Source: Chthonomonadales bacterium
GTDB lineage: Bacteria; Armatimonadota; Chthonomonadetes; Chthonomonadales; CAJBBX01
Assembly: GCA_037443035.1 (NCBI GenBank)
Contig: JBBIPC010000009.1
Location: 81,984-124,297, forward strand
Direction: 5' to 3'
DNA length: 42,314 nt
The notes beneath the pieces were generated by a model. That model ran no database searches, was not told where the DNA came from, and saw only the letters and a program-made list of their open reading frames with translations. The translations under genes were made by a program, and so were the position numbers. Below are positions 26,472 to 41,039 of this stretch, piece by piece (the stretch's first letter is position 1; the number at the start of each line of letters is the position of its first letter).

Positions 26472-26828
26472 ATGTCCGATCTGCCGCAGCTCGACCGATT
26501 TGTCCGTGACGCAACACGTTTCGCCCTGCGAGCGTACCGGCAGGCGCGCCAGTGGCTGGAGCAGACGCTCACAGATGCGGGAGTGCTCGAGCCAAAGTCG
26601 CCGGCCATCTTGTGGGTGGATCGTTCGCCTGGCGTCGTAGCCGGCAAGCATGGCCGTGCCGGACGTGTGGATCCCGTGACGGGTGTGACGATCGAGACTG
26701 GCGATCGCGTGTGCGTCTGCTCCAGTTGCGATTCGACCTTCCTTGCCTCGACGTGGGAGGAAATACAACGCAGCGGCTCCTCGGCGTGTCCCATCTGTCA
26801 CGCACGCAGGAGCATCCACCCACTCTAG
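26472..26828 (+). CDS. Degenerate prokaryotic RING finger (Prok-RING-like) protein, candidate E3
   Basis: DPVTGVTIETGDRVCVCSSCDSTFLASTWEEIQRSGSSACPIC follows Prok-RING spacing (CPxC..GD..VxCxxC..xHxxCW...C); CSSC and CPIC are kept, the other ligand positions are D/T/L/T. First gene of the E1-Ubl-E2-JAB cluster. Confidence 0.6.
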   Translation: MSDLPQLDRFVRDATRFALRAYRQARQWLEQTLTDAGVLEPKSPAILWVDRSPGVVAGKHGRAGRVDPVTGVTIETGDRVCVCSSCDSTFLASTWEEIQRSGSSACPICHARRSIHPL

Positions 26829-26887
26829 CTTGCCAGCATCGGCGGACTGCGCGCGAGTATCACGAGAGGGAGTACAGCACAATCGTC

Positions 26888-28048
26888 ATGGAAACATCGT
26901 GGATGCCGCTGCAGCCAGACCGCTATGCCCGGCATCGCCTTATCGAGTGGTGGGATCAGGAAGCGCTAGCGCGGGCAGCCGTCATGGTCGTTGGATGTGG
27001 CGCGCTCGGCAGCGAGGTTGTGCGTTTGCTGGCACTGGTCGGGGTCGGGCGTGTTCTGGCCGTGGATCCCGATCGGATCGAACTGCACAATCTCACGCGT
27101 GGAGTGTTCTTCCGCGCCGGGGATGTGGGCCGATACAAGGCCGTCGTCACGGCGCGCCGAGCAGCTGCACTGAATCCCGATATGGCAATCGAGCCCATCG
27201 TGGGACGTTTGGAGACCCACGTTGGTCTCGGGCTCCTCCGCGAGATGTCAGTGCTCGCCTGCTGTGTGGACAGTATCGGCGCACGCGTGGCCGCCAACAG
27301 CATGTGCTATCGTGCTGGCGTGCCCTGGGTCAACGGCGGCATCTCGCCCACGGCAGGCGAGGTCACTGCCTTTGGCGCATCCAGTCCGCCCTGCTATGGC
27401 TGTACCGTGTCGGACGAAATGTGGGAACGAGAACAGCTCGTCCATACGTGCAGAGGATTTCGTGCCGCGGGCGGGGGACCGCCGGCAGCCACGACCGCAA
27501 CGGTCGCCTCTGTCATTGCCGCATTCCAGGTGCAGCAGATTCTCACCAGGCTCAGCCCTCACCACTCGGCGCCCATTTGCCTGGGCGACGGGCAGAAGGT
27601 CTATATCTCGCTGAGCCCGCCGGCCTTCATGGTGAGTACCATCGTGCCGTCGCCTACTTGCGGCTTCCATGAGGTCTGGACACCCGACACGGTGCTGTCG
27701 GAAGGTCCAGATGAACTCACCGTTCAGGACCTGCTGGGCGCCTGCGGCTGCCCTGGCGGCAGCTTGGAGCTCGAGCGCGAGATACTCCTGCACGTACGCT
27801 ACCCGTGTTGTGACCGACGAAGACACATGGGTAGACCGTTGTGGAGCTACACCGAAGAGGTCCTCCAATGCCCGACATGCGGCAGCGAGTCCGGAGAGGC
27901 TGTTACGCTCTCGTCCGTCCGTGGAGGGACGAAGTACAGCCACAGACCCCTCGCGAATCTGGGTGTGCCGAAACGAGATATACTGGCCATCCGTCCTTCA
28001 GATAAGGAATGCGTCCGCTACGTGGAGATCGGCCCGCGGACCATGTGA
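26888..28048 (+). CDS. E1-like ubiquitin-activating enzyme (ThiF family) with extended Cys-rich C-terminus
   Basis: DRYARH, VGCGALGSE (nucleotide binding), DPDRIELHNLTRG, CVDS...R, CYGC Zn pair, putative catalytic Cys in HTC (27449-27451), CGFH, then CC/CPTC Zn ribbon and LANLGVP tail. Start 26888 or 26903. Confidence 0.88.
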   Translation: METSWMPLQPDRYARHRLIEWWDQEALARAAVMVVGCGALGSEVVRLLALVGVGRVLAVDPDRIELHNLTRGVFFRAGDVGRYKAVVTARRAAALNPDMAIEPIVGRLETHVGLGLLREMSVLACCVDSIGARVAANSMCYRAGVPWVNGGISPTAGEVTAFGASSPPCYGCTVSDEMWEREQLVHTCRGFRAAGGGPPAATTATVASVIAAFQVQQILTRLSPHHSAPICLGDGQKVYISLSPPAFMVSTIVPSPTCGFHEVWTPDTVLSEGPDELTVQDLLGACGCPGGSLELEREILLHVRYPCCDRRRHMGRPLWSYTEEVLQCPTCGSESGEAVTLSSVRGGTKYSHRPLANLGVPKRDILAIRPSDKECVRYVEIGPRTM

Positions 28049-28121
28049 GGCTTATCACCCTGCCGACAACGAGAAGGCCATGCGGATTCTCACCCCGAAT
28101 ACTGGCCGAGGAGGTGCACCG

Positions 28122-28391
28122 ATGATGGAAAAGAACACAGTCAGTATCACGGTGGAGACGGTGGACCAGACACGCCGCGCTGACGTGAGTTTGTCACCCC
28201 ATACGAACGTTGGCGAAATCGTGCGATTGGGCAAGCAGAACTGGAAGCTGCCAGAGACGGATTACGCCCTCGTGAATGTTCGTACGGGCCAGCAGCTCTC
28301 GCCCAGCGGCACTCTCGCTCAGCAAGGCGTTCAGGAAGGAGATCGCCTGGTCTTGCAGCCCCTGTTCCATGCCGGAGCCGGCGTCCAGTGA
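28122..28391 (+). CDS. Ubiquitin-like beta-grasp protein (YukD/EsaB-like Ubl)
   Basis: Strong RBS GAGGAGGT; 89 aa with beta-grasp pattern ...LSPSGTLAQQGVQEGDRLVLQP and C-terminus FHAG-AGVQ; stop overlaps the E2 GTG start. Confidence 0.85.
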   Translation: MMEKNTVSITVETVDQTRRADVSLSPHTNVGEIVRLGKQNWKLPETDYALVNVRTGQQLSPSGTLAQQGVQEGDRLVLQPLFHAGAGVQ

Positions 28392-28915
28392 ATCGGATCA
28401 GGAACCAGCGTCTGTCCGCGGATCATCAGAAGCTCCTTGCGCTGGTGGCGTCCAACGGTGACCGGCTGGCGATCCAGTCCATTCAGGGCACCCCGCCGGA
28501 TCGTTACGAAGTCACGATCCGGTGCAAGAGCGTCGTTGCCTTTCGTAGCGGACGCCCCGTCTACGGCGAGAACCACATGGTTCGCATCTCTCTGCCGCCT
28601 GGATACCCCCTACAAGATCGCCCACGGGCCACCCTCCTGAGTCCGATTGCCCACCCCCACATCTTCTCCAACCGAGACGTGTGCATCGGATCCCGGGGTT
28701 CGGTGACCGAGTTCCTGGACGCCTTCGTCCGGCGGCTCTATGACATCCTCCGGTACGATCCTAGGTACCTCGACCCGAGGAGTCCAGCCAACCTCCCCGC
28801 CATGGAATGGGCGCAACTCAACAGGCATCTCTTCCCCCTCGATCCATGGGAGCTCCGTGCGCCAGGCATTGGCAAGCCGGAACCGCCACCCATCGTCTGG
28901 ATCAACCGCCAGTAG
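28388..28915 (+). CDS. UBC-fold E2 ubiquitin-conjugating enzyme
   Basis: RLSADHQKL N-terminal helix, LPPGYP, PIAHPHIFSNRDVCIG (HPN-like motif plus catalytic Cys at 28682-28684), SPANLPAMEW (UBC PAN motif). Confidence 0.9.
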   Translation: MNRIRNQRLSADHQKLLALVASNGDRLAIQSIQGTPPDRYEVTIRCKSVVAFRSGRPVYGENHMVRISLPPGYPLQDRPRATLLSPIAHPHIFSNRDVCIGSRGSVTEFLDAFVRRLYDILRYDPRYLDPRSPANLPAMEWAQLNRHLFPLDPWELRAPGIGKPEPPPIVWINRQ

Positions 28916-28930
28916 ATCAGGACTGCCTGC

Positions 28931-29656
28931 ATGGCCACGAGACGGACAACCAGCGTCGAGTTCGTTCGGTCATTGCTGAGCGACCAGGACTGCCGCGGTG
29001 GATTCGTGGTGGGCCTTGCCATTGGCGTACTCCTCGGCTTCCATCTGGTGCGCAAGCCCCGCCGGGAGGAGCCGCCCGTCGAGTGGACTGAAGGTCCGCC
29101 ACCCCAGCAGGAGCCACCCTCCAGACCGCCAATCGAGTGGACCGAGCGTTCCGACGTCATCAGCCTGACCCCAGGTCTGTCCATACCCCCTGGCTCGTAC
29201 CTCTGGCGAAGCTCCATGCTCGTCGCCATCACGCCAGAAGCGCAGGAGACTATGGACCGATATGCGAGCGGCGACACGCGAACCGAGCGCATGGGGTATC
29301 TCGTCGGCCGAGTCGGTTACACACAGATAGGATCGGAGCTTCTGACGATCGTGGAGCAGGCCGTACCCCTACCATCCTCGTACGCTACCGCCACCCATGT
29401 TGCCATCACCAGCGAGTCGCTGCCGGTACTCGCGGCTGCGGTACGGGAGTTCCCTCCAGGCGTGGCTGCGGTTGGCTGGTTCCACACCCACCCTGGGCTA
29501 GGCGTATTCCTGTCCGGCACAGATCATCATACGCAGCGTACATGTTTCCCGCATGATTGGCAAGTTGCCGTCGTTCTCGACCCTGTGGACCGTGCCATGG
29601 GGGTGTTCACGGGACCCAGTGGCGTCAGGGCGAAGCTGGTGGCCGTGCCGAGATGA
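28931..29656 (+). CDS. JAB/MPN+ (JAMM) metallo-isopeptidase with N-terminal hydrophobic helix
   Basis: ERMGYLVG (catalytic Glu) and GWFHTHPGLGVFLSGTD (HxH-x7-S-x2-D, Rpn11/CSN5-like), VVLDP; N-terminal GGFVVGLAIGVLLGFHLV. Confidence 0.9.
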   Translation: MATRRTTSVEFVRSLLSDQDCRGGFVVGLAIGVLLGFHLVRKPRREEPPVEWTEGPPPQQEPPSRPPIEWTERSDVISLTPGLSIPPGSYLWRSSMLVAITPEAQETMDRYASGDTRTERMGYLVGRVGYTQIGSELLTIVEQAVPLPSSYATATHVAITSESLPVLAAAVREFPPGVAAVGWFHTHPGLGVFLSGTDHHTQRTCFPHDWQVAVVLDPVDRAMGVFTGPSGVRAKLVAVPR

Positions 29657-29707: not shown

Positions 29708-31135
29708 ATGAGCCAACATCGTCTCGCGGTTGCTTCGCTGCTCGTCCTCGGAGCGAGCGCCGCATTGCCGTACGGTAGCACGACGCAGACCGACGTCCAG
29801 AGGATTCCCCCTGTGGGCCGCCCGTCGGATCGGATCCGTCCGTACACCGGCAACCCGCGCTACTGGCAGTACAAAGGCAAACCCGTGTTGTTGCTCGGAG
29901 GCAGCAAGGACGACAACCTTTTCCAGATACCGGACCTGCGGCAGCATATCGACGAGATGAAGTTGGTCGGCGCGAACTACATTCGGAACACCATGAGCGA
30001 CCGTCCGGACTTCGGCTTCGAGGTGTACCCGTTCCTGAAGCGCCCCGACGGCAAGTACGATCTGGAGCGATGGAACCCAGAGTACTGGCGGCGGTTCTCC
30101 GAGATGTTGAAGCTAACCTACGATCGGGATATCGTGGTGCAGATCGAGGTCTGGGACCGATTCGACTATGCCCAACAGCGATGGCCGATCCACCCCTACA
30201 ACCCTGCCAACAATGTCAACTACACCTACGAGCAGTCCGGATTCGCCCCGCAATACCCGGACCATCCGGGAGCCAATCGCCAGCCCTTCTTCTTCACGAC
30301 GCCTGTCCAGCGCAACAACCAGGTGGTATTCCGGTACCAACAGCGCTTCGTTGATGAGATGCTGCGGAGGTCGCTCCCCTATCCCAACGTGCTCTACTGT
30401 ATGGACAACGAGACCTCCGGAGACGAGAAGTGGAGCCGCTTCTGGGCGGAGTACATCCGGGCCGCCGGCAGGAAGGCTGGCGTCGAGGTGCAGGTGACGG
30501 AAATGTGGGACGATTGGAACATCACTTCGGACGTCCATCGCCGCACCCTGGACCATCCCGAGTTGTACACGTTCGTGGACGTTTCCCAAAACAATCATAA
30601 CAAAGGCCAGACGCACTGGGACCGCTTCCAGTGGGCCCGTGAGCACATCGCCGCAAAGCCCAGACCGATCAATACGGTGAAAACGTACGGGGCGGACAGC
30701 GGGCGTTTCGGCACAACTGCCGATGGACTGGAGCGCTGGTGGAGGCACCTCATAGGCGGAGCAGCAGCCGTTCGCTTCCACAGACCCGATTCAGGGCTTG
30801 GCCTGTCTCGTCCGGCGAAGGCGTCCATCCAAGCCGGTCGCCTGCTGGCAGCTCGGATGAACTTGTGGGAGGCAGAACCGACGAACGGTATTCTACGTGA
30901 CCGCAGCGAAGATGAGGCTTACGCGACAGTCAAGGCCGGAGCTGCCTGCGCGGTCTATTTCCCGCGAGCCGGTCAAGTGAAGCTGGACCTCTCGAGCTGG
31001 CGCGGGAAGTACCGCCTCGAATGGATAGACGTCACCAAGGGAACGCTCCACACTGTCAGTATCGTGACGGCGAATACTGAGCTTCCCCTCCGCACTCCTG
31101 GCGACGGAATGTGGTTGGCGGTCGTTCGCCGTTGA
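29708..31135 (+). CDS. Secreted DUF6298/GH5-like TIM-barrel protein with C-terminal collagen-binding-like beta domain
   Basis: AAGGAGGAG RBS and signal peptide; [34 protein letters not shown] tail. Confidence 0.7.
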
Positions 31136-32793: not shown

Positions 32794-34503
32794 TCACGTC
32801 GCGCCGTCTTCCGCCTCCAGCGCCGCACGCTTGGCTCCGAGATCTGCAAGAGCGGCGCTGACAGCAGATTCCCCCTCGGCCTGGAGCGCTCTGGCTCGCT
32901 CCATACCCCGCTGGGCCGCCTCGAGCACCTCCTTGAGGACGTAACGGATCTCGCTCTCGAGCGCCATACGGCTGTCCTGCAGTCTCTGTTTGACGCTGTT
33001 CTCGACCCGAATCGCGTTGACTTCCAGCAAGCGCCGCAGAAAGGCGGCGGCGTCCCGCTGGATGGCCCCCATGGTGAGAGATACGGGGAGGATGGCCTCG
33101 ATAAACCACTGCAGGAGCGGTACGAGACCCGCCGGTGACGCCACATTGTGGAAATCGGCGAACGTGAACCGTCTCCCGCGGCGTGTTGCGGCGTCGCCGC
33201 CGACTTGCTCCGGCAGCGGAACCGAGGTCCAGTTCTCCGAGCTTCGGAGCCGCTGGAGGAGATCGTTCACCATGTCCGTGAAACGCTCCGTCACGTGTCG
33301 GTAGGCTTCGGCAGCTACTCTCTCGCTCTGGCCGAGCCATGGAGTCACCCGTTGTCGAGCGGTCCGCTGGGCTTCGCCGAAGGCATAGGCGCGCAGCGCC
33401 GGCCCGAACCGAATACGGCTGTCACGCACCGTCTGGATCAGTTCCTTCTCGGCCTGGGGAATGGCCTGCTGGAGGAACTCGGTACGCCGTCGAGCGAACT
33501 GACTGCCGAGACGCTGCAGTTCGGCATCGAAGAGAGGTCCGATCTCCCACAGTGCCCGGGAAGCTTCCTCCTGAGCGTCCTTGAGCAGTGTCAGGCGCCT
33601 GGCGGTCTCTTCGAGTGGACGCCGCAGGGCTGCCTCTTCCTCAGCCAGTATGTTGCGCAATCGGGCCGCGAGGCGATGCAATCCCCTGTGAATCGCCGAC
33701 TCCACGAGCACTTCGCCCGACTCCTCCGCCAGAGTGCGCAAGTGCTCCATGAGCGCGGACCAGTCCCGCGTGGCCTGGCCAGTGGTTAGACGCTCCAATG
33801 CGCTGACGCGGAATACTCTTTCCACGGGTCTCCCGAGTTTCTGCGAGAGAACCCGTTCGGCAAATGCCGCTGCTTCTTCGCACTCTTCGTCCGAGACCCG
33901 ATCGGCCTTATTCATCACGAAGACGAAGGTCTCGACTTGGCGCGCGATCTCCAGAATGAGCGCGGTTTCTTCGCCGGATATGGGCGGGTCTGCTCCGAAG
34001 ACGGCTAGCGCAGCGTCAATGTGAGGCACGAACTCGCGAGTGGCCTCACTGTTGGCCTCGAACACCGACCCGAGACCCGGAGTGTCTACGAAACACAGTC
34101 CCGATGCTAGGAGCGGGCTCGGCAAGAAGACCTCCACGGCGAGAACGCCTTTCGCATTCCCTGGGTTGCGCTCCTCCGAGACGTAATCCGGCAGGTCTTC
34201 CCGGGCAATCTCTAGCCACGGCATCCCGGATTGACGCAGGCGAATCATTGCGCGGTCGCCATGACGCAGAATGGTCACGACAGACGTCACGGGAACGGTC
34301 CCCGTCGGAAGGATCCTATCGCCGACAAGGGCGTTGAGCAGCGTGGACTTCCCACGTTTGAACTGCCCGACACAGGCCACGTAGAATCTGCCCTCAGCCG
34401 CGCGCTGGGCAAGGGAGTGCGCTTCGTCGGCAACCCCCGCGGCCCCGATCTCGTGCGCTAGACGTTCAAGGTGCTGCAGGCGACTTAGCGCATCCGCGCT
34501 CAT
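32794..34503 (-). CDS. Bacterial dynamin-like GTPase
   Basis: G1 GQFKRGKST, G2 PVTS, G3 DTPG, G4 NKAD; long helical C-terminal stalk with a hydrophobic segment (GLVPLLQWFIEAILPV). Confidence 0.88.
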   Translation of the reverse strand: MSADALSRLQHLERLAHEIGAAGVADEAHSLAQRAAEGRFYVACVGQFKRGKSTLLNALVGDRILPTGTVPVTSVVTILRHGDRAMIRLRQSGMPWLEIAREDLPDYVSEERNPGNAKGVLAVEVFLPSPLLASGLCFVDTPGLGSVFEANSEATREFVPHIDAALAVFGADPPISGEETALILEIARQVETFVFVMNKADRVSDEECEEAAAFAERVLSQKLGRPVERVFRVSALERLTTGQATRDWSALMEHLRTLAEESGEVLVESAIHRGLHRLAARLRNILAEEEAALRRPLEETARRLTLLKDAQEEASRALWEIGPLFDAELQRLGSQFARRRTEFLQQAIPQAEKELIQTVRDSRIRFGPALRAYAFGEAQRTARQRVTPWLGQSERVAAEAYRHVTERFTDMVNDLLQRLRSSENWTSVPLPEQVGGDAATRRGRRFTFADFHNVASPAGLVPLLQWFIEAILPVSLTMGAIQRDAAAFLRRLLEVNAIRVENSVKQRLQDSRMALESEIRYVLKEVLEAAQRGMERARALQAEGESAVSAALADLGAKRAALEAEDGAT

Positions 34504-34958
34504 TCCCCAGCACTCCCACCTTTCTTCGGTGCTGCACGATAGCCGTCCAGAAGGCGGCGAATCGCATGGGTTTCCTGACGCATGGCGTCCGCGAGTGCAG
34601 CCATGCGCTCCCGGTCCGGAGACGTGATGGGGCCGTATTGCTGGACCATGCGGTCGGGATGGAGATCATCCACGATCTCTTCCTCGAGACTACGCAGGAG
34701 CACCGATAACCAGAAGAGCGTGGCGCTCCGGCCGTCGGCACGTTCCTGTTCCGCCAAGCGGTCGGGGCACTCGCACCACACGGCGTCTCGAAGCAGGCTC
34801 ACGAGGCGGGCGAGGTGCACCTCCACTTGCTGCCATTCGTCATGGTCCAGCGGCGTCAGCGCCGCCCCGCTGACGGGACTTCGACCGTCCCTGCCCGCAC
34901 GCTCCATACGGCTGGCCATTTCCTGGACAGCGTTCAGCGCTGCAAACAGGTGGTTCAC
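34500..34958 (-). CDS. Hypothetical helical protein translationally coupled to the dynamin-like gene
   Basis: GTG at 34958 with GGAAGGA RBS, 152 aa; ATGA overlap with the dynamin start. Confidence 0.65.
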   Translation of the reverse strand: MNHLFAALNAVQEMASRMERAGRDGRSPVSGAALTPLDHDEWQQVEVHLARLVSLLRDAVWCECPDRLAEQERADGRSATLFWLSVLLRSLEEEIVDDLHPDRMVQQYGPITSPDRERMAALADAMRQETHAIRRLLDGYRAAPKKGGSAGE

Positions 34959-34969
34959 ATGTCCTTCCG

Positions 34970-35692
34970 TCACCTTGCATGCCCCCCATTGCGGCGGTAG
35001 GTGATGCGTCCTCCGAACTTGAGCAGGGCTCGGATCCACGCATCGCTCTCACGGCCCATGGGTTCGTGTCGGTACCTAGCGTCGGACTTGCGCACGAACT
35101 CGGCCAGCTCTGCCCAGAGTCGCATCAGTGCCGTGCGCTCGTGCTCCACGAGGAATAGGCGCGTCTCGCCGGATGTCCGTTCCAGCACCGCCATCAGATG
35201 CCGAAGGCAGAGACCTGCAGTAGCTTCGAACGCGGCGCGTAACTCCATATCGCGTAGTGCCTCCGCCATGGCGCCGGCGTAGAGATCCATATCCTCGTCT
35301 TCTGCAACACAGAGCGGACACGTTCCCTGGCTAAGGTCCGCCGACGAGCCCGATGAAGTCGAGAGTCTCCGCAACGCCTCTCCGGTCACGTCTTGGTACA
35401 TGATCGAGACCGCCAGCGGGTTACCCCGTCGCAAAACAGCCTCGGCATGTCTGGCGCAGAATCCCAGTGAGGCCCGGAGTTGTGCTCTGAATTCTGGGTC
35501 ATTCACACCCTCACGGAACAGGTAAGCCAAGCGCCGCACACTTGCCTCGGTCTGCAAGCGGCACAGTGGACATCCCTCCAGTGCGATGGCCTCCCGCAGC
35601 TCATGATAGAGTGTGTGACGGGGGACACTCGGTCGGCTACTTCGCGACGCAGCCTGCCCATGTAGAGGGCCGGCAACAGCGATGGACCGCAT
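34970..35692 (-). CDS. DUF6062-like protein (duplicated CPxC ... GxCxxH Zn-binding module)
   Basis: GCPLC...VNDPEFR...GFCARH and CPLC...GLCLRH, FVRKSDARY. Start uncertain (35692 or 35791). Confidence 0.75.
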   Translation of the reverse strand: MRSIAVAGPLHGQAASRSSRPSVPRHTLYHELREAIALEGCPLCRLQTEASVRRLAYLFREGVNDPEFRAQLRASLGFCARHAEAVLRRGNPLAVSIMYQDVTGEALRRLSTSSGSSADLSQGTCPLCVAEDEDMDLYAGAMAEALRDMELRAAFEATAGLCLRHLMAVLERTSGETRLFLVEHERTALMRLWAELAEFVRKSDARYRHEPMGRESDAWIRALLKFGGRITYRRNGGHAR

Positions 35693-35794
35693 GTTGAACC
35701 GATGCTGTATCCACCGGAGACACGCTGCCGTCGTGTCCCGGAGGTTCGGATGCGCTAGCCTTTCGATCCGTGCCTTCACGTTCGCTAACATGGC

Positions 35795-35838
35795 AACAAG
35801 AAACCCCCGCCGGCGCGGTATTCGCGCTCGTCGGGGGT
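35795..35838 (-). terminator. Intrinsic terminator in the riboswitch leader
   Basis: Minus strand ACCCCCGACGAGCGCG-AATAC-CGCGCCGGCGGGGGT followed by TTCTTGTT. Confidence 0.65.
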
Positions 35839-35878
35839 GCTGTCTTGGTTCTGGCTCCCTCGTGATGCACGAACACCA

Positions 35879-35946
35879 CAAGGAGCCATCAGCTCACGTG
35901 GAGCGGTTCAGACGGCCTGGCCGTCTCGGCGGTCTCCATCGCCTAT
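35879..35946 (-). ncRNA. Fluoride riboswitch (crcB motif)
   Basis: Minus strand ATAGGCGATGGAGACCGCC-[hairpin]-GAACCGCTCCACGTGAGCTGATGGCTCCT: P1 GGCG/CGCC, pseudoknot GGAG/CTCC, GCTC/GAGC stem, conserved GCTGATG; matches the known crcB consensus. Confidence 0.88.
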
Positions 35947-36017: not shown

Positions 36018-37751
36018 CTATTCCTTCGCTCCGCCACTCTCTGCGGAAGCGGAGGCAGGAGTCTGCTGGAACTGCTGGGAAAACGCATCGAGAGCTTTCC
36101 GTAAAGTGGCGTCGGTGTCTTCAGAGAGCTCCTTGGTCTTACGGATCGTTTCCGCGATCTCCGGATAGTGCTGCGCCAGGTAGGCATGCATCTCTCGCTC
36201 GAAACGCTGCACGTCCTCGACCGGTATCGGATCTAGGTAGCCGTTGCTTCCTGCGAAGATGGAGATCACCTGATTCTCGACCGGCATGGGTTGGTACTGG
36301 GGCTGGCACAGGAGCTGGACCATCCGCATACCTCGGTGCAACTGCGCCTGCGTGGCCTTGTCGAGGTCCGATGCGAACTGCGCGAACGCCTGGACTTCTC
36401 GATACTGGGCAAGTTCCAGGCGAAGCCTTCCTGCAACGCTACGGAGCGCCTTTACCTGGGCGGCACCGCCCACGCGGGACACCGACGTTCCCACATTGAT
36501 GGCAGGTCGAACTCCGGAGAAGAACAGATCGCTCTCCAGGAAGATCTGGCCATCGGTAATGGAGATGACGTTCGTCGGGATGTAGGCGGAAATGTCGCCT
36601 GCTTGGGTCTCGATGATGGGCAGTGCGGTCAAGCTGCCGCCGGTCTTCGGCACCTTCCGGATCTCCAGATTGGCAGCATCCGGCATGGCAGCGAGTTCTT
36701 TCTCGGCTTCCCGGCGTCCTCTCGGCCCCAGATAGGTCTTTCCGTTCGACCCCTCCGCAGTGTCTGCCGGCGCCATCTTCGGCACTATGATCCAGTCCTC
36801 CCGTATCTTCGCTGCGCGCTCCAAGAGCCGACTGTGGAGGTAGAAAACGTCTCCGGGGAACGCCTCTCTTCCAGGTGGACGCCGGAGAAGCAGGGAAAGC
36901 TGGCGATACGCGACGGCATGTTTCGAGAGGTCGTCGTAGACACAAAGGGCGTGCAGCCCCTGATCACGGAAAAACTCGCCGATGGTGACGCCGCTGTAGG
37001 GTGCCAGGTAGAGCATCGGCGCAGGGTCCGATGCCGTCGCACTGACGACGACGGTGTAATCCATGGCACCGTGCTGTTCGAGGGTCCGTACCACGTTGGC
37101 GACTGTGGACTGTTTCTGACCAATGGCGACGTAGACACAGATGACGCCCATGCCCTTCTGATTGATGATGGTATCCACAGCAACCGCCGTCTTACCTGTG
37201 CCGCGATCGCCAATGATCAGCTCACGCTGACCACGTCCGATGGGAACCATGGAGTCGATGGCCTTGAGGCCGGTCTGTAGCGGTTCCGATACAGGCTGGC
37301 GCTCGATGACGCCCGGCGCCCGTGCTTCGATATAGCGGCGCTCTTCGGCAACGATGGGGCCCTTCCCATCGATCGGGTCGCCCACGGCGTTCACCACGCG
37401 CCCCACCATGGCCGGCCCCACAGGAATGGAAACGACGTTGCCGGTACGGCGCACCGTCGTCCCTTCGCGGATGCCCATATCTGGCCCCAGAATGACGGCG
37501 CCCACGTTATCCTCGTCGAGGTTGAGGGCGATCGCACGGATGATGTGCCCGTCCGTGTCCGTTATGGGGTTGCCGCGTTCGTCGAGGAACTCCAGCATCT
37601 CCTGAACCATGCAGTCCTGCAGGCCGTAGATGCGCGCGATGCCATCGCCCACCTGCAACACAGTACCGACGCCGATCTCCTCGACCTTGCGCTCGAACGC
37701 CTGAAGCTCCTGCTCCAGGATAGATGTTATCTCTTCCGGTCTGATTGCCAC
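36018..37751 (-). CDS. atpA: F0F1 ATP synthase subunit alpha
   Basis: AIRPEEI N-terminus (GTG 37751), [15 protein letters not shown] Walker [36 protein letters not shown]. Confidence 0.97.
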
Positions 37752-37800
37752 CAGTCTATACCCCTTGCTTCCTCCGGGATGGCATGGACGCCGATGCCCT

Positions 37801-38379
37801 TCACCCGCCTCCACTACCCTGTTCGGCCATGGCAGACTCCAGTAACATGGTTTCTCGCATGGCTTCCAGCGCCCCACGCACACTGCCGTCCCAGACGGTG
37901 TCCCCCACTCGGACCGCAATCCCGCCGAGCATCGCCGGCTCCACCCGCACATGCAGGAGAACCGGACGGTTCAGCCGTTGCCGTATTGCCTCCTCCAACC
38001 GAACCAGCTGGGCATCGCTGAGTGGCGCAGCGGAGGTGACGAACGCACGCGCCACACCTGCGGCCTCATCTGCACCACGTGTGTACTCCTCGTAGATCGC
38101 TGGCAGGATGTCGGTACGCCGCTTGGCGATGAGCAGGTCCATGAAGCGTCGCGTAATTTCGTCCGCGCCCGTAAGCGCTCTCTCGACCATGCGCCGCTTC
38201 TCTGCCGACGGCACGAGCGGACTATCCATCACGCGGTGGAACGCCGGACTGTCGCGACGCGCCGTGATGAGTGCCTCCATGTCATGCCGAACAGCTTCGA
38301 CCCGATCCATCCGCTCAGCGGTGTGAAGCAGGGCCAGTGCATAGCGGCGTGCTATTCTGGCAGATCCTAGCGTGGTCAT
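37801..38379 (-). CDS. atpH: ATP synthase subunit delta
   Basis: [33 protein letters not shown]; operon position. Confidence 0.93.
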
Positions 38380-38903
38380 CGGGCTTCCCCGAACTCCCTG
38401 ACGAAGGCATCCAGGAGACTAGCCTGCCTACTTTCCGTCAGCGTCCGCGCCGCGGCGTATGAGGCGGCCTCGATGACATCCTCCGCGAACTCGATGCGGA
38501 GGTGGGCCATGGCCCGTTCCCAATCGCGGCGTGCTTCCGATCGTGCATGTGCGATGATGGCCTCCGCGTGCTGGCGTGCTTCCGATTCGATGTGCGAACG
38601 CAACTCGGCAGCACTGGCCACTGCCTCATCGAGACGTCGCTGGGTCTCTTCGGCGATGTGATCCAGCTTGTCCCGGTAGTCATCCCGTATCGCCTCGGCG
38701 TCGGCTAGAGCCTGTCGCACCTGGTCCAGGGAGTCCGCTACGGTTGTGGTCCGTTCCTCGAGCTTCGCTCGGATGGCCGGGACAATCAACTTCACGACCA
38801 AAGCCGCAAGGGCCAGAAAACCAGCAGTACGCACAACGATCCACTGGAAGTCGGATATGTCCGCGGGATGCTCGAGAAGCCAAGGAACCACGTACGGATC
38901 CAT
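38376..38903 (-). CDS. atpF: ATP synthase F0 subunit b
   Basis: N-terminal TM helix followed by a long Ala/Glu-rich coiled coil; lies immediately upstream of atpH. Confidence 0.8.
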   Translation of the reverse strand: MDPYVVPWLLEHPADISDFQWIVVRTAGFLALAALVVKLIVPAIRAKLEERTTTVADSLDQVRQALADAEAIRDDYRDKLDHIAEETQRRLDEAVASAAELRSHIESEARQHAEAIIAHARSEARRDWERAMAHLRIEFAEDVIEAASYAAARTLTESRQASLLDAFVREFGEAR

Positions 38904-38905
38904 AC

Positions 38906-39412
38906 TCAGTTCCTCGCATCCCGGACGCGAATGTACTCGCGGATCAGTTGGCGCTGGTTCTCGTCCGGGGGTTCGCCCTGAGCCTTGCCGAGGGCCTCCA
39001 TAGCCGCACGCTCCAGGCGTTCCTCCGCAGCCGCTCTTCCAGCCAGTCGGTCGGCCTCGGTTCTCTCCTGTCCTTCGCGTGCAATTCGCTCTGCTTCCGC
39101 CCGCGCTTCAGCGATGACAGCTTCGCGCGCCCGCTGTGCGGCCTGGAGCGTTGCTTGGATGCGTGACCGTGCGTCAGCTTCGATGGCTGCCACGCGTTCT
39201 TCGTACTCGGCTCGGAGACGCTCCATCTCTGCCCGCGTGGTCTCGACGGTTCCGTAGGCGTCCTTGATCCGCTTGTTCCTCTGGTCCAGATGGCGCATGA
39301 TGGGCTTCCAGAAGATGCGATCCATGAGGAAGAGGAGAATCAGGAACGCACCTGCATTGAGCAGGAGCACGCGGAAGTCAATGGCCAGACTCTCGCGGAT
39401 CGTGTCGAGCAT
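38906..39412 (-). CDS. atpF: ATP synthase F0 subunit b/b' (second copy)
   Basis: FLILLFLMDRIFWKPIMRHLDQR signature plus coiled coil; follows atpE. Confidence 0.85.
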   Translation of the reverse strand: MLDTIRESLAIDFRVLLLNAGAFLILLFLMDRIFWKPIMRHLDQRNKRIKDAYGTVETTRAEMERLRAEYEERVAAIEADARSRIQATLQAAQRAREAVIAEARAEAERIAREGQERTEADRLAGRAAAEERLERAAMEALGKAQGEPPDENQRQLIREYIRVRDARN

Positions 39413-39437
39413 GGGCTGGATTAGGCGAAGCCTGCTC

Positions 39438-39719
39438 CTACTTGATGGCGGCGCTCTTCAGCGCCTCGACGACCGCATTCGGATCGGCGGGGAGCTGCGC
39501 CTTGAGCATGAACAGGAACACGAAGGTGAAGATGACCAGCGACTCGATAAAGGCGAGGCCAAGGATCATGGCCGTCTGGATACGTCCAATCGCCTCCGGT
39601 TGCCGGGCCATACCTTCGAGAGCCGACGCCGCTGCCCTGCCCTGGGCGGTTGCACCGCCCAGCACGGCGATGGGTAGCCCTAACCCGACGGCAAGGGCCA
39701 GCATGGCGAAGTAGATCAT
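39438..39719 (-). CDS. atpE: ATP synthase F0 subunit c
   Basis: Two TM helices, ARQPE loop, ion-binding Glu in FIESL; AAGGAGG RBS. Confidence 0.95.
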   Translation of the reverse strand: MIYFAMLALAVGLGLPIAVLGGATAQGRAAASALEGMARQPEAIGRIQTAMILGLAFIESLVIFTFVFLFMLKAQLPADPNAVVEALKSAAIK

Positions 39720-39770
39720 CGTGTGAGCCTCCTTAGGCGGTGAATCTGTTGGCGGGACAGCGTGCTTGCG

Positions 39771-40562
39771 CTAGGATGATGCATGGGCCGCCTCCTCGCC
39801 GGAGTGTTCCTCGTGATGCGACTGCAGAGACAGATAGATACATGTGAGAAGCGTGAAAACGAGGGCCTGAACGAAGGTGGTGAGTAACGCTAGAACGAGT
39901 ACAGGGAACTGTACTGGTATGAACGGCAACTTCGGCAGAATCGCAACCCCTAATGTCGCCAGCACGACGATGACTGTGTCCTCACCAAAGATATTGCCGA
40001 AAAGACGCATCGCGAGAGTGAACGGCTTCACCATCTCGCTGATGATCTCGATGGGAAACAGGAGGATGCCCGCTGCAGGGATCGGTCCCCAGAAGTGCGC
40101 CAGGTAGCCCTTCAGTCCTCGCTCTCGAATGCCCACGTACTGGACGTAGAAGAAGACTACGAGGCCCAGCGCGAGCGTAGTGCTGAGGTTCGCTGTCGGA
40201 GAATGAAAGACGGGCAGAAGCCCCCAGAGGTTGCTGACGTAGATGAACAGGAAGAGCGTACCCACCAAGGGAACGTACTTCTCGCCGCCTGGTCCGATGA
40301 CCCCCCGGGTGAAGCCGATGAACGCTTCGACGATAGCTTCGCCAAGGTTCTGCATGCCGCGAGGGATGTCCGTCAGCTTCCGCGATGCCCAGATCCCGAA
40401 CGCGAGAATCACCAGAACCACCAAGATCGCATTGCTGAACAGAAGCCACGGGCTCGGAATGTCACCGAGCTTGTAGGGATGGTGGCCACCATGCCCCTGC
40501 GCCGCATGGGCGCCCACGGGAACCAATTCGTGACCTGTTTCGCTATGTTTCCCCTCGGGCAC
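39771..40562 (-). CDS. atpB: ATP synthase F0 subunit a
   Basis: PRGMQNLGE, SPTANL, KPFTLAMRLFGNI (essential Arg), QALVFTLLT. Confidence 0.95.
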   Translation of the reverse strand: MPEGKHSETGHELVPVGAHAAQGHGGHHPYKLGDIPSPWLLFSNAILVVLVILAFGIWASRKLTDIPRGMQNLGEAIVEAFIGFTRGVIGPGGEKYVPLVGTLFLFIYVSNLWGLLPVFHSPTANLSTTLALGLVVFFYVQYVGIRERGLKGYLAHFWGPIPAAGILLFPIEIISEMVKPFTLAMRLFGNIFGEDTVIVVLATLGVAILPKLPFIPVQFPVLVLALLTTFVQALVFTLLTCIYLSLQSHHEEHSGEEAAHASS

Positions 40563-40610
40563 GAAGCCCCTCCCTATCCTCTTGGTGATCCTGAGATGGG
40601 TCGCTGCGGA

Positions 40611-41039
40611 CTATTTCCTGGTATCCGGCGCGCCCGAAGTCGCGACCCTCGCACCTGGTTTCTCGTTCGCCGTCGTCGGGCCCACAAGCATGCGACCCAG
40701 GGTCTTCAGCACGATAACGGCTGGCACGAGCCCGACTCCGGCAAAGACTGCAAGGCCCTCGATCGCTGGAGCGGACAGAGCCAGATACAGTACGACCCCG
40801 AAAACCGGCAGCTTCGCCAACAAGGCGAAACCCAACAGCCACACGCGCGGGCGTTCAGGCGATACCAACCTCGGGACCAACCACACTAGACTCAACAGGC
40901 TGAACAAGCTCAGCGCACTGCCCACCGCGAGTCCAGCGGCGATATCGGGCCTTCCGCCGACTGTGAACAAGAACACGAACAAAGCCGCCAGCCAAGACCC
41001 AGTACGAACTACACGTCGCGGCAGATCCCGTTCGTCCAT
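40611..41039 (-). CDS. atpI: ATP synthase subunit I-like membrane protein
   Basis: Four hydrophobic helices; position upstream of atpB. Confidence 0.65.
   Translation of the reverse strand: MDERDLPRRVVRTGSWLAALFVFLFTVGGRPDIAAGLAVGSALSLFSLLSLVWLVPRLVSPERPRVWLLGFALLAKLPVFGVVLYLALSAPAIEGLAVFAGVGLVPAVIVLKTLGRMLVGPTTANEKPGARVATSGAPDTRK

Follow-up and report, generated by a model that had tools for sequence, protein, structure and literature searches.

A compact five-gene operon of a Chthonomonadales bacterium, a predicted one-zinc-RING variant of bacterial ubiquitin-like conjugation operons

Operons that combine genes for a ubiquitin-like protein (Ubl), an activating enzyme (E1), a conjugating enzyme (E2), a RING protein and a JAB peptidase were predicted in bacteria by comparative genomics (Burroughs, Iyer and Aravind, Mol Biosyst 2011, cited in PMC7159879 and PMC10557695; PMC3417536, section 17). 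In the sources cited in this study, such Ubl-E1-E2-RING-deubiquitinase operons, called tri-ligase operons, stand as predicted and uncharacterised, and the bacterial systems Bil and Bub have no ligase (E3) (PMC11601596, PMC11601603, PMC7159879, PMC1779556, PMC5654768, PMC10557695, PMC6043591, PMC3417536, PMC11354881). An archaeal counterpart, the Ub/E1/E2/small-RING/Rpn11 set of Caldiarchaeum subterraneum, was reconstituted (PMC5654768). In the present study, we analyzed a stretch of 42,314 nucleotides (the window: contig JBBIPC010000009.1, positions 81,984 to 124,297 of the forward strand) from a Chthonomonadales bacterium, a member of Armatimonadota from the order that holds Chthonomonadaceae, and found a real and complete five-gene RING-E1-Ubl-E2-JAB set. 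Judged from the sequences, the operon is a compact one-zinc-RING variant of the predicted tri-ligase operons, and not Bil, Bub or the cyclic-oligonucleotide-based antiphage signalling system (CBASS). An earlier sequence-only reading had proposed it as the best candidate in the window for an undescribed system; this does not hold, because Ubl-E1-E2-RING-JAB operons had already been predicted in print, and the archaeal counterpart has been reconstituted. The compact form itself may already be listed in Burroughs 2011/2012 or the supplements. In the literature searched, which left most subscription journals outside, we found neither experiments on a bacterial RING cascade nor any on this operon in Armatimonadota. 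We see in the operon a good starting point for experiments, not a category of its own. The known versions are mostly long and membrane-bound, whereas here there are five small genes with one soluble RING, and it is therefore about the simplest place to ask for a full bacterial E1-E2-E3 cascade. Two further questions can be put to it: is one zinc site enough for a RING to activate an E2, and do tags of this kind serve cell regulation rather than the fight against phage? It also bears on the origin of the eukaryotic ubiquitin system.

The operon consists of the following genes.

26472-26828, + strand: RING-like gene, open reading frame (ORF) of 118 amino acids
26888-28048, + strand: E1 gene, ORF of 386 amino acids
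28122-28391, + strand: Ubl gene, ORF of 89 amino acids, with a GGAGG ribosome site upstream
28388-28915, + strand: E2 gene, ORF of 175 amino acids, whose GTG start overlaps the Ubl stop at GTGA
28931-29656, + strand: JAB gene, ORF of 241 amino acids

The ORF coordinates bear out five closely spaced co-directional genes with a Ubl/E2 overlap, as the sequence-only reading had described (gaps of 59, 73, -4 and 15 nucleotides in the order above). The least certain coordinate is the start of the RING-like gene, where the ribosome site is unclear. Pfam identified ThiF in the E1 (E=1.5e-45), YukD in the Ubl (1.2e-7) and JAB in the JAB protein (9.7e-7); UQ_con in the E2 (E=0.011) was below the cut-off, and the zinc-finger matches of the RING-like protein were all sub-threshold. 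The gene order is beyond chance, because it is kept in 10 of 15 relatives with an E1 orthologue (8 whole, 2 broken by contig ends) and on one metagenome contig, where the same five genes, with a 55% identical E2, lie beside the same DUF6785 gene. This DUF6785 membrane gene adjoins the operon in the window, and transcription of the operon runs away from it. The gene that comes next (29708-31135) was rejected as a sixth member, since in the metagenome orthologue a different gene lies at that place. The guanine-plus-cytosine content of the operon (0.60-0.64, genome 0.618) and its base composition are those of the genome. A promoter and terminator scan of the operon gave no signal above chance. 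The suggested PADLOC check for a named system returned none: no model matched the RING, Ubl or E2, PADLOC and NCBIfam named no system for the operon, and the CBASS E1-E2 models covered only the adenylation core of the E1.

Like the tri-ligase operons, the locus has the five components in a conserved operon, a YukD-type Ubl, a RING homologous to Prok-RING_1 and other prokaryotic RINGs, catalytic cysteines in E1 and E2, an intact JAMM motif and no link to metabolic genes, sulfur or cofactor genes included. It differs in having five genes only, without FHA-like, trypsin or membrane-RING partners, in its single soluble RING with one zinc site, and in its signs of vertical descent and dispersal. 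Larger relatives in the same phylum carry canonical Prok-RING_1. With Caldiarchaeum (PMC5654768, PMC6043591) it shares the five-part operon, an E1 with a C-terminal Ubl-fold domain, a small stand-alone RING and an Rpn11-like JAMM protein, which in the archaeon cuts the Ubl precursor and is the best solved relative of the window JAB. However, the archaeal tag is truly ubiquitin-like and has Gly-Gly, while that of the window belongs to the YukD type and has one Gly; the archaeal RING is a two-zinc RING-H2, while the window RING is C4HC3-derived with one site; and the window E2 has His-Pro-His. BilABCD (PMC10557695) is alike in its separate E1, E2, Ubl and JAB, cysteine chemistry, and conserved single Gly with a variable tail, but the window E1 consists of one adenylation domain plus a domain like the ubiquitin-fold domain (UFD) and a RING is present, so that the locus falls outside the definition of Bil. 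Bub and type II CBASS Cap2/Cap3 (PMC11601596) also place E1, E2, Ubl or JAB modules in one operon. Bub, however, uses Tyr/Ser oxyesters, fusions and the serine protease BubE, in contrast to the five separate genes and invariant catalytic cysteines found here, and its DUF6527 was not matched by any of the five operon genes or two flanking genes. CBASS has an E1-E2 fusion and a CD-NTase (cGAS/DncV-like nucleotidyltransferase); the window has neither, and no CD-NTase was found among the flanking genes.

The RING-like E3 proposed for the first gene survives in part: a model supports a RING/U-box fold, but the protein is not a canonical two-zinc RING, one site having been lost.

About residues 64-115 of the 118-residue RING-like protein: RING domain (alignment and model)
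C83, C86, C106 and C109: zinc site 2, kept, with the conserved W95
D67, T70, L91 and T94: zinc site 1, lost, these residues replacing C, C, H and C

In comparison with the canonical C4HC3 RINGs of the larger Armatimonadota operons, ligands 3, 4, 7 and 8 and the Trp are kept and ligands 1, 2, 5 and 6 are lost. With four of the eight ligands missing and no match to PF14446 (Prok-RING_1), which one of 12 relatives matched at E=0.008, the protein is not a canonical member of that family. The hhalign alignment to a canonical Prok-RING_1 member nevertheless gave E=7e-6, and a weak Atlas lead (0.84) also pointed to PF14446. From 150 matches listed in a search of 1.84 billion representatives, 55 homologues were kept and 95, short zinc-finger repeats, were dropped. 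All four site-2 cysteines are present in all 55, ligand 2 is Thr in all, and in 54 each ligand 5 is Ser, ligand 6 is Gly and ligand 1 is still Cys. Zinc site 1 is lost in 55/55, and the window RING has lost the first Cys too. Since the profile was built from degenerate forms, the 55 show a stable subfamily and not the share of such forms among all RINGs. W95 and the loop-1 Pro are conserved among them. The AlphaFold2 model (pLDDT, the predicted local distance difference test score, 85; alignment of 72 sequences) matched the folds of RING1B (Z 7.1, root-mean-square deviation (rmsd) 4.6, 61 residues aligned), a U-box (Z 6.7, rmsd 3.4, 61) and a RING-H2 (Z 6.5, rmsd 2.8, 54). RNF4 and further RING proteins recur throughout both fold searches, and the best 50 rows of the wide search are nearly all RING or U-box proteins. 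The modelled fold of the first gene product is thus called RING/U-box, with one zinc site only, because the match list is consistent and not because of any one score. A sequence search of the profile against solved structures gave no convincing relative, C2H2 repeats dominating. A review mentions bacterial RINGs in which just the hairpin and C-terminal pairs of ligands are retained (PMC11354881, section 18).

Hydropathy revealed no transmembrane segment in the RING-like protein. The gene was found in all 15 genomes with an E1 orthologue, including three in which it lies away from E1 and E2. In many relatives (L028:7472-8245, L030-L034, L119:1450-2181) a SWIM-like finger, possibly a substrate-binding module, precedes the half-RING, and the closest orthologue, that of the metagenome contig, adds a zinc ribbon; the window protein has neither. 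Separately, the host genome, G000, encodes a stand-alone protein of 256 residues that has additional Cys pairs besides a canonical Prok-RING_1 domain (C1:357131-357901, L107). This orphan was rejected as a second E3, because Prok-RING_1 matches to it occur in 16 of 23 family genomes where the E1/E2/JAB cascade was not found.

The features of the E1 are as follows.

Gly-rich loop 36-41, R71, K84 and D128: ThiF-type adenylation domain (Pfam ThiF)
C169/C172/C258/H261: zinc site
Cys188, codon at 27449, + strand: putative catalytic cysteine, on a flexible loop
Residues about 265-383: C-terminal UFD-like domain with a zinc-ribbon insert (structure model)

Cys188 and the adenylation residues are invariant in an alignment of 15 orthologues. 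In the structure model (pLDDT 83; below 50 in loop 183-200, which holds Cys188), MoeB/ThiF overlap up to residue 262 (Z 31.1, rmsd 1.9, 231 aligned), whereas UBA3, SAE2 and UBA1 overlap over 8-383, their C-terminal E2-binding domain included (for example, 9DQB_B, Z 27.7, rmsd 4.2, 313 aligned). About 120 residues past the adenylation domain align to UFDs, a part that ThiF/MoeB do not have, and weak Atlas leads named E2_bind (0.81) and UAE_UbL (0.78). On the full-length model, we read this part as a UFD-like domain that may bind E2. Unlike a sulfur-carrier ThiF/MoeB, the E1 does not end after the adenylation domain, and its best NCBIfam ThiF/MoeB score is 119 bits against a cut-off of 275.

The E2 and the Ubl carry the following motifs.

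E2, UBC family: His-Pro-His 89-91, loop-4 Pro-x-x-Tyr-Pro 70-74, putative catalytic Cys99 (codon at 28682)
Ubl, YukD-type, 89 residues: predicted mature end at Gly85 (a single Gly preceded by Ala), with a tail of four residues beyond it

PF00179 is present in 26 of 28 E2 homologues, and the E2 profile retrieves eukaryotic E2s whose His-Pro and catalytic Cys line up with its own, the best being UBE2L3 (E=1.4e-4); the earlier assignment of a UBC-type E2 with HPH..C therefore stands. So do the proposed catalytic codons, 27449 (E1 Cys188, 15/15) and 28682 (E2 Cys99), the latter Cys being invariant in 11/11 aligned sequences and present in at least 90% of 57 wider homologues. The beta-grasp Ubl is likewise upheld by the YukD match, which is above the Pfam cut-off, but the sequence-only reading had missed that the protein is probably made as a precursor, with four more residues after Gly85. 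This Gly is invariant in 11/11 aligned sequences, and the precursor reading follows because all 30 distinct Ubl C-termini have a Gly in the same register and many, 15 of the 30, stop exactly there (5 of the 18 that belong to compact operons and 10 of the 12 that belong to large ones). In the closest orthologue, from the metagenome, the Gly is kept and followed by a different tail of two residues. BilA and archaeal ubiquitin are likewise precursors with a tail (PMC10557695, PMC6043591). A sequence search of the Ubl profile against solved structures found no convincing relative.

The last gene encodes the peptidase.

E119, H185, H187, S195 and D198: Rpn11-like JAMM motif of the 241-residue JAB

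All five residues are invariant in 10 of 10 aligned JABs, which confirms the JAMM protease named earlier. Among solved relatives, the archaeal (Caldiarchaeum) Rpn11-like 6FJU is best (E=1.3e-19), followed by eukaryotic Rpn11 and CSN5. A JAB with the motif is kept in five genomes whose Ubl already ends at Gly (G034, G039, G041, G043, G049). Retention where no trimming is needed argues for deconjugation, and hence for real conjugates; the sequences suggest that JAB also removes the tag, besides trimming. A supposedly broken JAB in G049 was dismissed, since the flagged stop is merely the gene end. Residues 23-41 form an N-terminal hydrophobic segment (hydropathy 1.8 over 19 residues), possibly a membrane anchor; a stretch of at least 1.8 occurs in 3 of 10 JABs, and a similar one in the metagenome orthologue.

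As for the distribution, a single-protein query against genome contigs gave no match, but an alignment query did. A full-length E1 orthologue is present in 15 of 60 relatives, all from one sister family, and in none of 23 genomes of the own family. The E2 profile matched 63 of 401 genomes of the phylum, including 15 of 32 in the sister family and 0 of 20 in the own family, and the JAB profile gave just two marginal matches in 23 own-family genomes. Besides the 10 genomes that keep the gene order, two of the 15 have the operon split into RING-E1 and E2-JAB, with the Ubl detected in one. In the other three (genus g32), E1 is alone, Ubl-E2 lies elsewhere, and RING and JAB stand head to head at a third locus, with unrelated genes around. 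In the E1 tree, E1s cluster by genus, and those of compact and large operons form separate groups. Operon neighbours in relatives are mostly metabolic or housekeeping genes. Only one near full-length PADLOC match lies directly beside a system gene, next to a lone E1. In five loci (L021, L025, L030, L031, L039) a transglutaminase gene is directly upstream of the RING gene, preceded in L021 and L031 by ATP-grasp-like and alpha-E-like genes (named by eye). This transglutaminase/alpha-E cluster was excluded as a part of the system, because G000 gave no match for two of its three genes. In genus g25, a gene for Leu/Phe-tRNA protein transferase (N-end rule) directly follows E1 (L022:2761-3369, L024:7778-8404).

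From the observed genes, their order, conserved residues, predicted folds and distribution, we infer the chemical steps, an E3 role, targets and a biological role as follows. JAB would clip the four-residue tail and expose Gly85, as conservation and the archaeal and Bil precedents suggest. The E1, probably as a homodimer, would adenylate Gly85 and then carry the Ubl on Cys188; its UFD-like domain would recruit E2, and the Ubl would pass to Cys99. The RING may then bind the Ubl-loaded E2 and help to move the Ubl onto lysines of partner proteins, and JAB, perhaps membrane-anchored, may take the tag off again. In short, the five genes would form a self-contained conjugation cascade with the RING as E3 adaptor, serving a reversible cellular modification and not a mobile antiphage weapon; taken as a whole, we believe this a little more than we doubt it. 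For its parts, Ubl conjugation likely takes place, judging from the sequences, and the RING, going by its modelled fold, probably acts as the E3. A cellular role has about an even chance and is slightly favoured over defence, which we think rather unlikely. The E1-E2-E3-deubiquitinase cascade of the sequence-only reading is accordingly retained for the conserved catalytic residues, the E2 profile, the RING fold and the want of a consistent sulfur or cofactor link, its E3 activity being putative; between defence and regulation, which that reading had left open, the genomic context leans to regulation.

The cellular role is favoured because E1s group by genus and genus g32 retains the system across three separate loci, because a 55% identical orthologue lies beside the same DUF6785 gene and the base composition is the genome's, and because viral contigs gave no relative of the system and few flanking proteins match PADLOC (8 of 118, mostly through generic domains, a count that has no background control and to that extent weighs on the other side). 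Several observations count against this interpretation. The distribution is patchy, with no real E1, E2 or JAB orthologue in the own family (0/20, 0/23), and a related cassette is carried on a cyanobacterial (Crinalium) plasmid, a combination that fits a mobile conflict system. The window E1 forms a long branch beside a cyanobacterial E1, its placement being unsure. The window E2 is without the Trp (position 104) that follows the catalytic Cys in relatives, and this Trp neighbours the loop that binds RINGs in other E2s (loop role: PMC5654768). As for the RING, the alignment behind its model included 16 canonical RINGs, the fold scores are modest (Foldseek E 0.002 at best, Z below 8), and no substrate-binding domain is evident in it, unlike in the larger operons. 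In an antiphage system, the same chemistry would put the Ubl on phage proteins or on a host sensor upon infection, as in Bil. The characterised bacterial E1+E2+JAB systems are defensive and uncharacterised families are predicted to be so (PMC10557695), and besides the patchy distribution and the plasmid, the window holds, 3 kb downstream of the operon, a gene of the dynamin family that matches LeoA in part. Against this, the flanks are mostly metabolic and housekeeping genes, the loci are stable within genera, the system is retained after dispersal, and RING, Ubl and E2 match no PADLOC model; we hold defence possible but doubtful.

The chemistry itself may also be read otherwise. It is possible, though we think it unlikely, that E1, E2, Ubl and JAB conjugate alone and that the half-RING, no longer an activator of E2, serves as scaffold, regulator or substrate. 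Bil functions without an E3 (PMC10557695). Zinc site 1 is lost in every homologue and, in the window, the first Cys too, and the canonical Prok-RING_1 in 16 of 23 family genomes without a detected cascade indicates that RING domains can exist without it. However, the degenerate RING is kept in 15 of 15 cascade genomes, W95 and the loop-1 Pro are conserved, and zinc is dispensable for U-box E3s, while a single zinc suffices for SP-RING E3s. Still less probable is a tag that sends proteins to the host proteasome in parallel with pupylation. Pup-ligase-coupled related systems are in print (PMC7159879) and were seen in genome G025; the host genome carries Dop, PafA, 20S subunits and an ARC-type ATPase, the JAB is Rpn11-like, and the Leu/Phe-tRNA protein transferase gene follows E1 in two relatives. 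Pup ligases, however, are present whether or not a relative has the operon (60 of 61); co-occurrence is therefore uninformative, and a link drawn from it was rejected. Moreover, no proteasome gene flanks the compact operons among the nearest neighbours scanned, and we know of no Ubl receptor on bacterial ARC. The possibility that we credit least, and consider very improbable, is that the genes serve sulfur carriage or a cofactor pathway in the manner of ThiS/ThiF or MoaD/MoeB. The E1 core does have its best NCBIfam and structural scores with ThiF/MoeB, and in one relative (L031) sulfate-activation-like genes, recognised by eye, lie a few kb from the operon. The NCBIfam scores are all far below the cut-off, though, and E2, RING and the UFD-like domain have no part in sulfur transfer. 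The sequence-only reading had named consistent linkage to such genes as one observation that would speak against conjugation; we looked for it in the 41 nearest neighbours scanned in relatives, and found no sulfur or cofactor gene to recur.

A further feature of the operon is a hydrophobic-x-Trp-x-acidic motif shared by three of its proteins.

26607-26621, + strand: motif in the RING-like protein, residues 46-50, before the RING domain
28892-28906, + strand: like motif in the E2 tail
JAB linker: like motif twice, around W52 and W70

With a matrix trained on 29 E2 tails of relatives (p from shuffles, one run), the window RING site gave p=0.005. The aligned site reached p<=0.05 in 9 of 10 JAB N-terminal regions, these JABs being kin and not independent. 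Among the N-terminal regions of the RING proteins, which have Phe at the aligned site, just 4 of 54 passed that threshold. By eye, an acidic-hydrophobic stretch also recurs at the ends of E1, E2, JAB and partners of the large operons. Our guess from these sequences is that the motif is a common docking strand. SP-RING E3s and SUMO-interacting motifs offer a parallel in the SUMO pathway. A domesticated, housekeeping Ubl modification in Chthonomonadales may then have converged on the logic of that pathway, with a one-zinc RING E3 and a docking strand shared by E2 tail, E3 and deconjugase, the strand binding the tag or a common partner as SUMO-interacting motifs do; we offer this as a speculation that is unlikely to hold. 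If true, bacteria would have their first example of a RING-dependent cascade, and also the first whose role is regulatory and not defensive.

Elsewhere in the window, in the host genome and in other genomes, we noted the following. The dynamin-family gene (Pfam Dynamin_N) and two upstream co-directional ORFs of unknown family occupy 32794-35881 on the - strand. The host genome, G000, has its Pup-proteasome cluster at C20:50727-57457 (ARC-type ATPase, Dop, 20S beta and alpha, PafA). More distant RING-E1-E2-Ubl-JAB cassettes, with an ARC-like ATPase and additional genes of the Pup-ligase family behind them, are found at L103 (G025 C18), G045 C582 and G054 C335; they match the Pup-coupled systems mentioned in PMC7159879. 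The Crinalium plasmid NC_019754 (L140:6242-13317) and a Laspinema contig (L056) have E1, small ORFs, E2 and JAB, after which comes a gene for a type IV coupling protein; in the Laspinema contig there are Cys-rich ORFs, possibly degenerate RINGs. The large Armatimonadota operons (L087:7007-17476 in G192, L088-L097, L101, L105, L106) contain two E2s, several JABs, up to five canonical membrane-segment RING proteins, a trypsin-like protease and an FHA-like protein. Finally, F-type ATP synthase genes (alpha, delta, b and a subunits, recognised by eye) lie at 36018-41039 on the - strand of the window, and the region was therefore marked as core chromosome.

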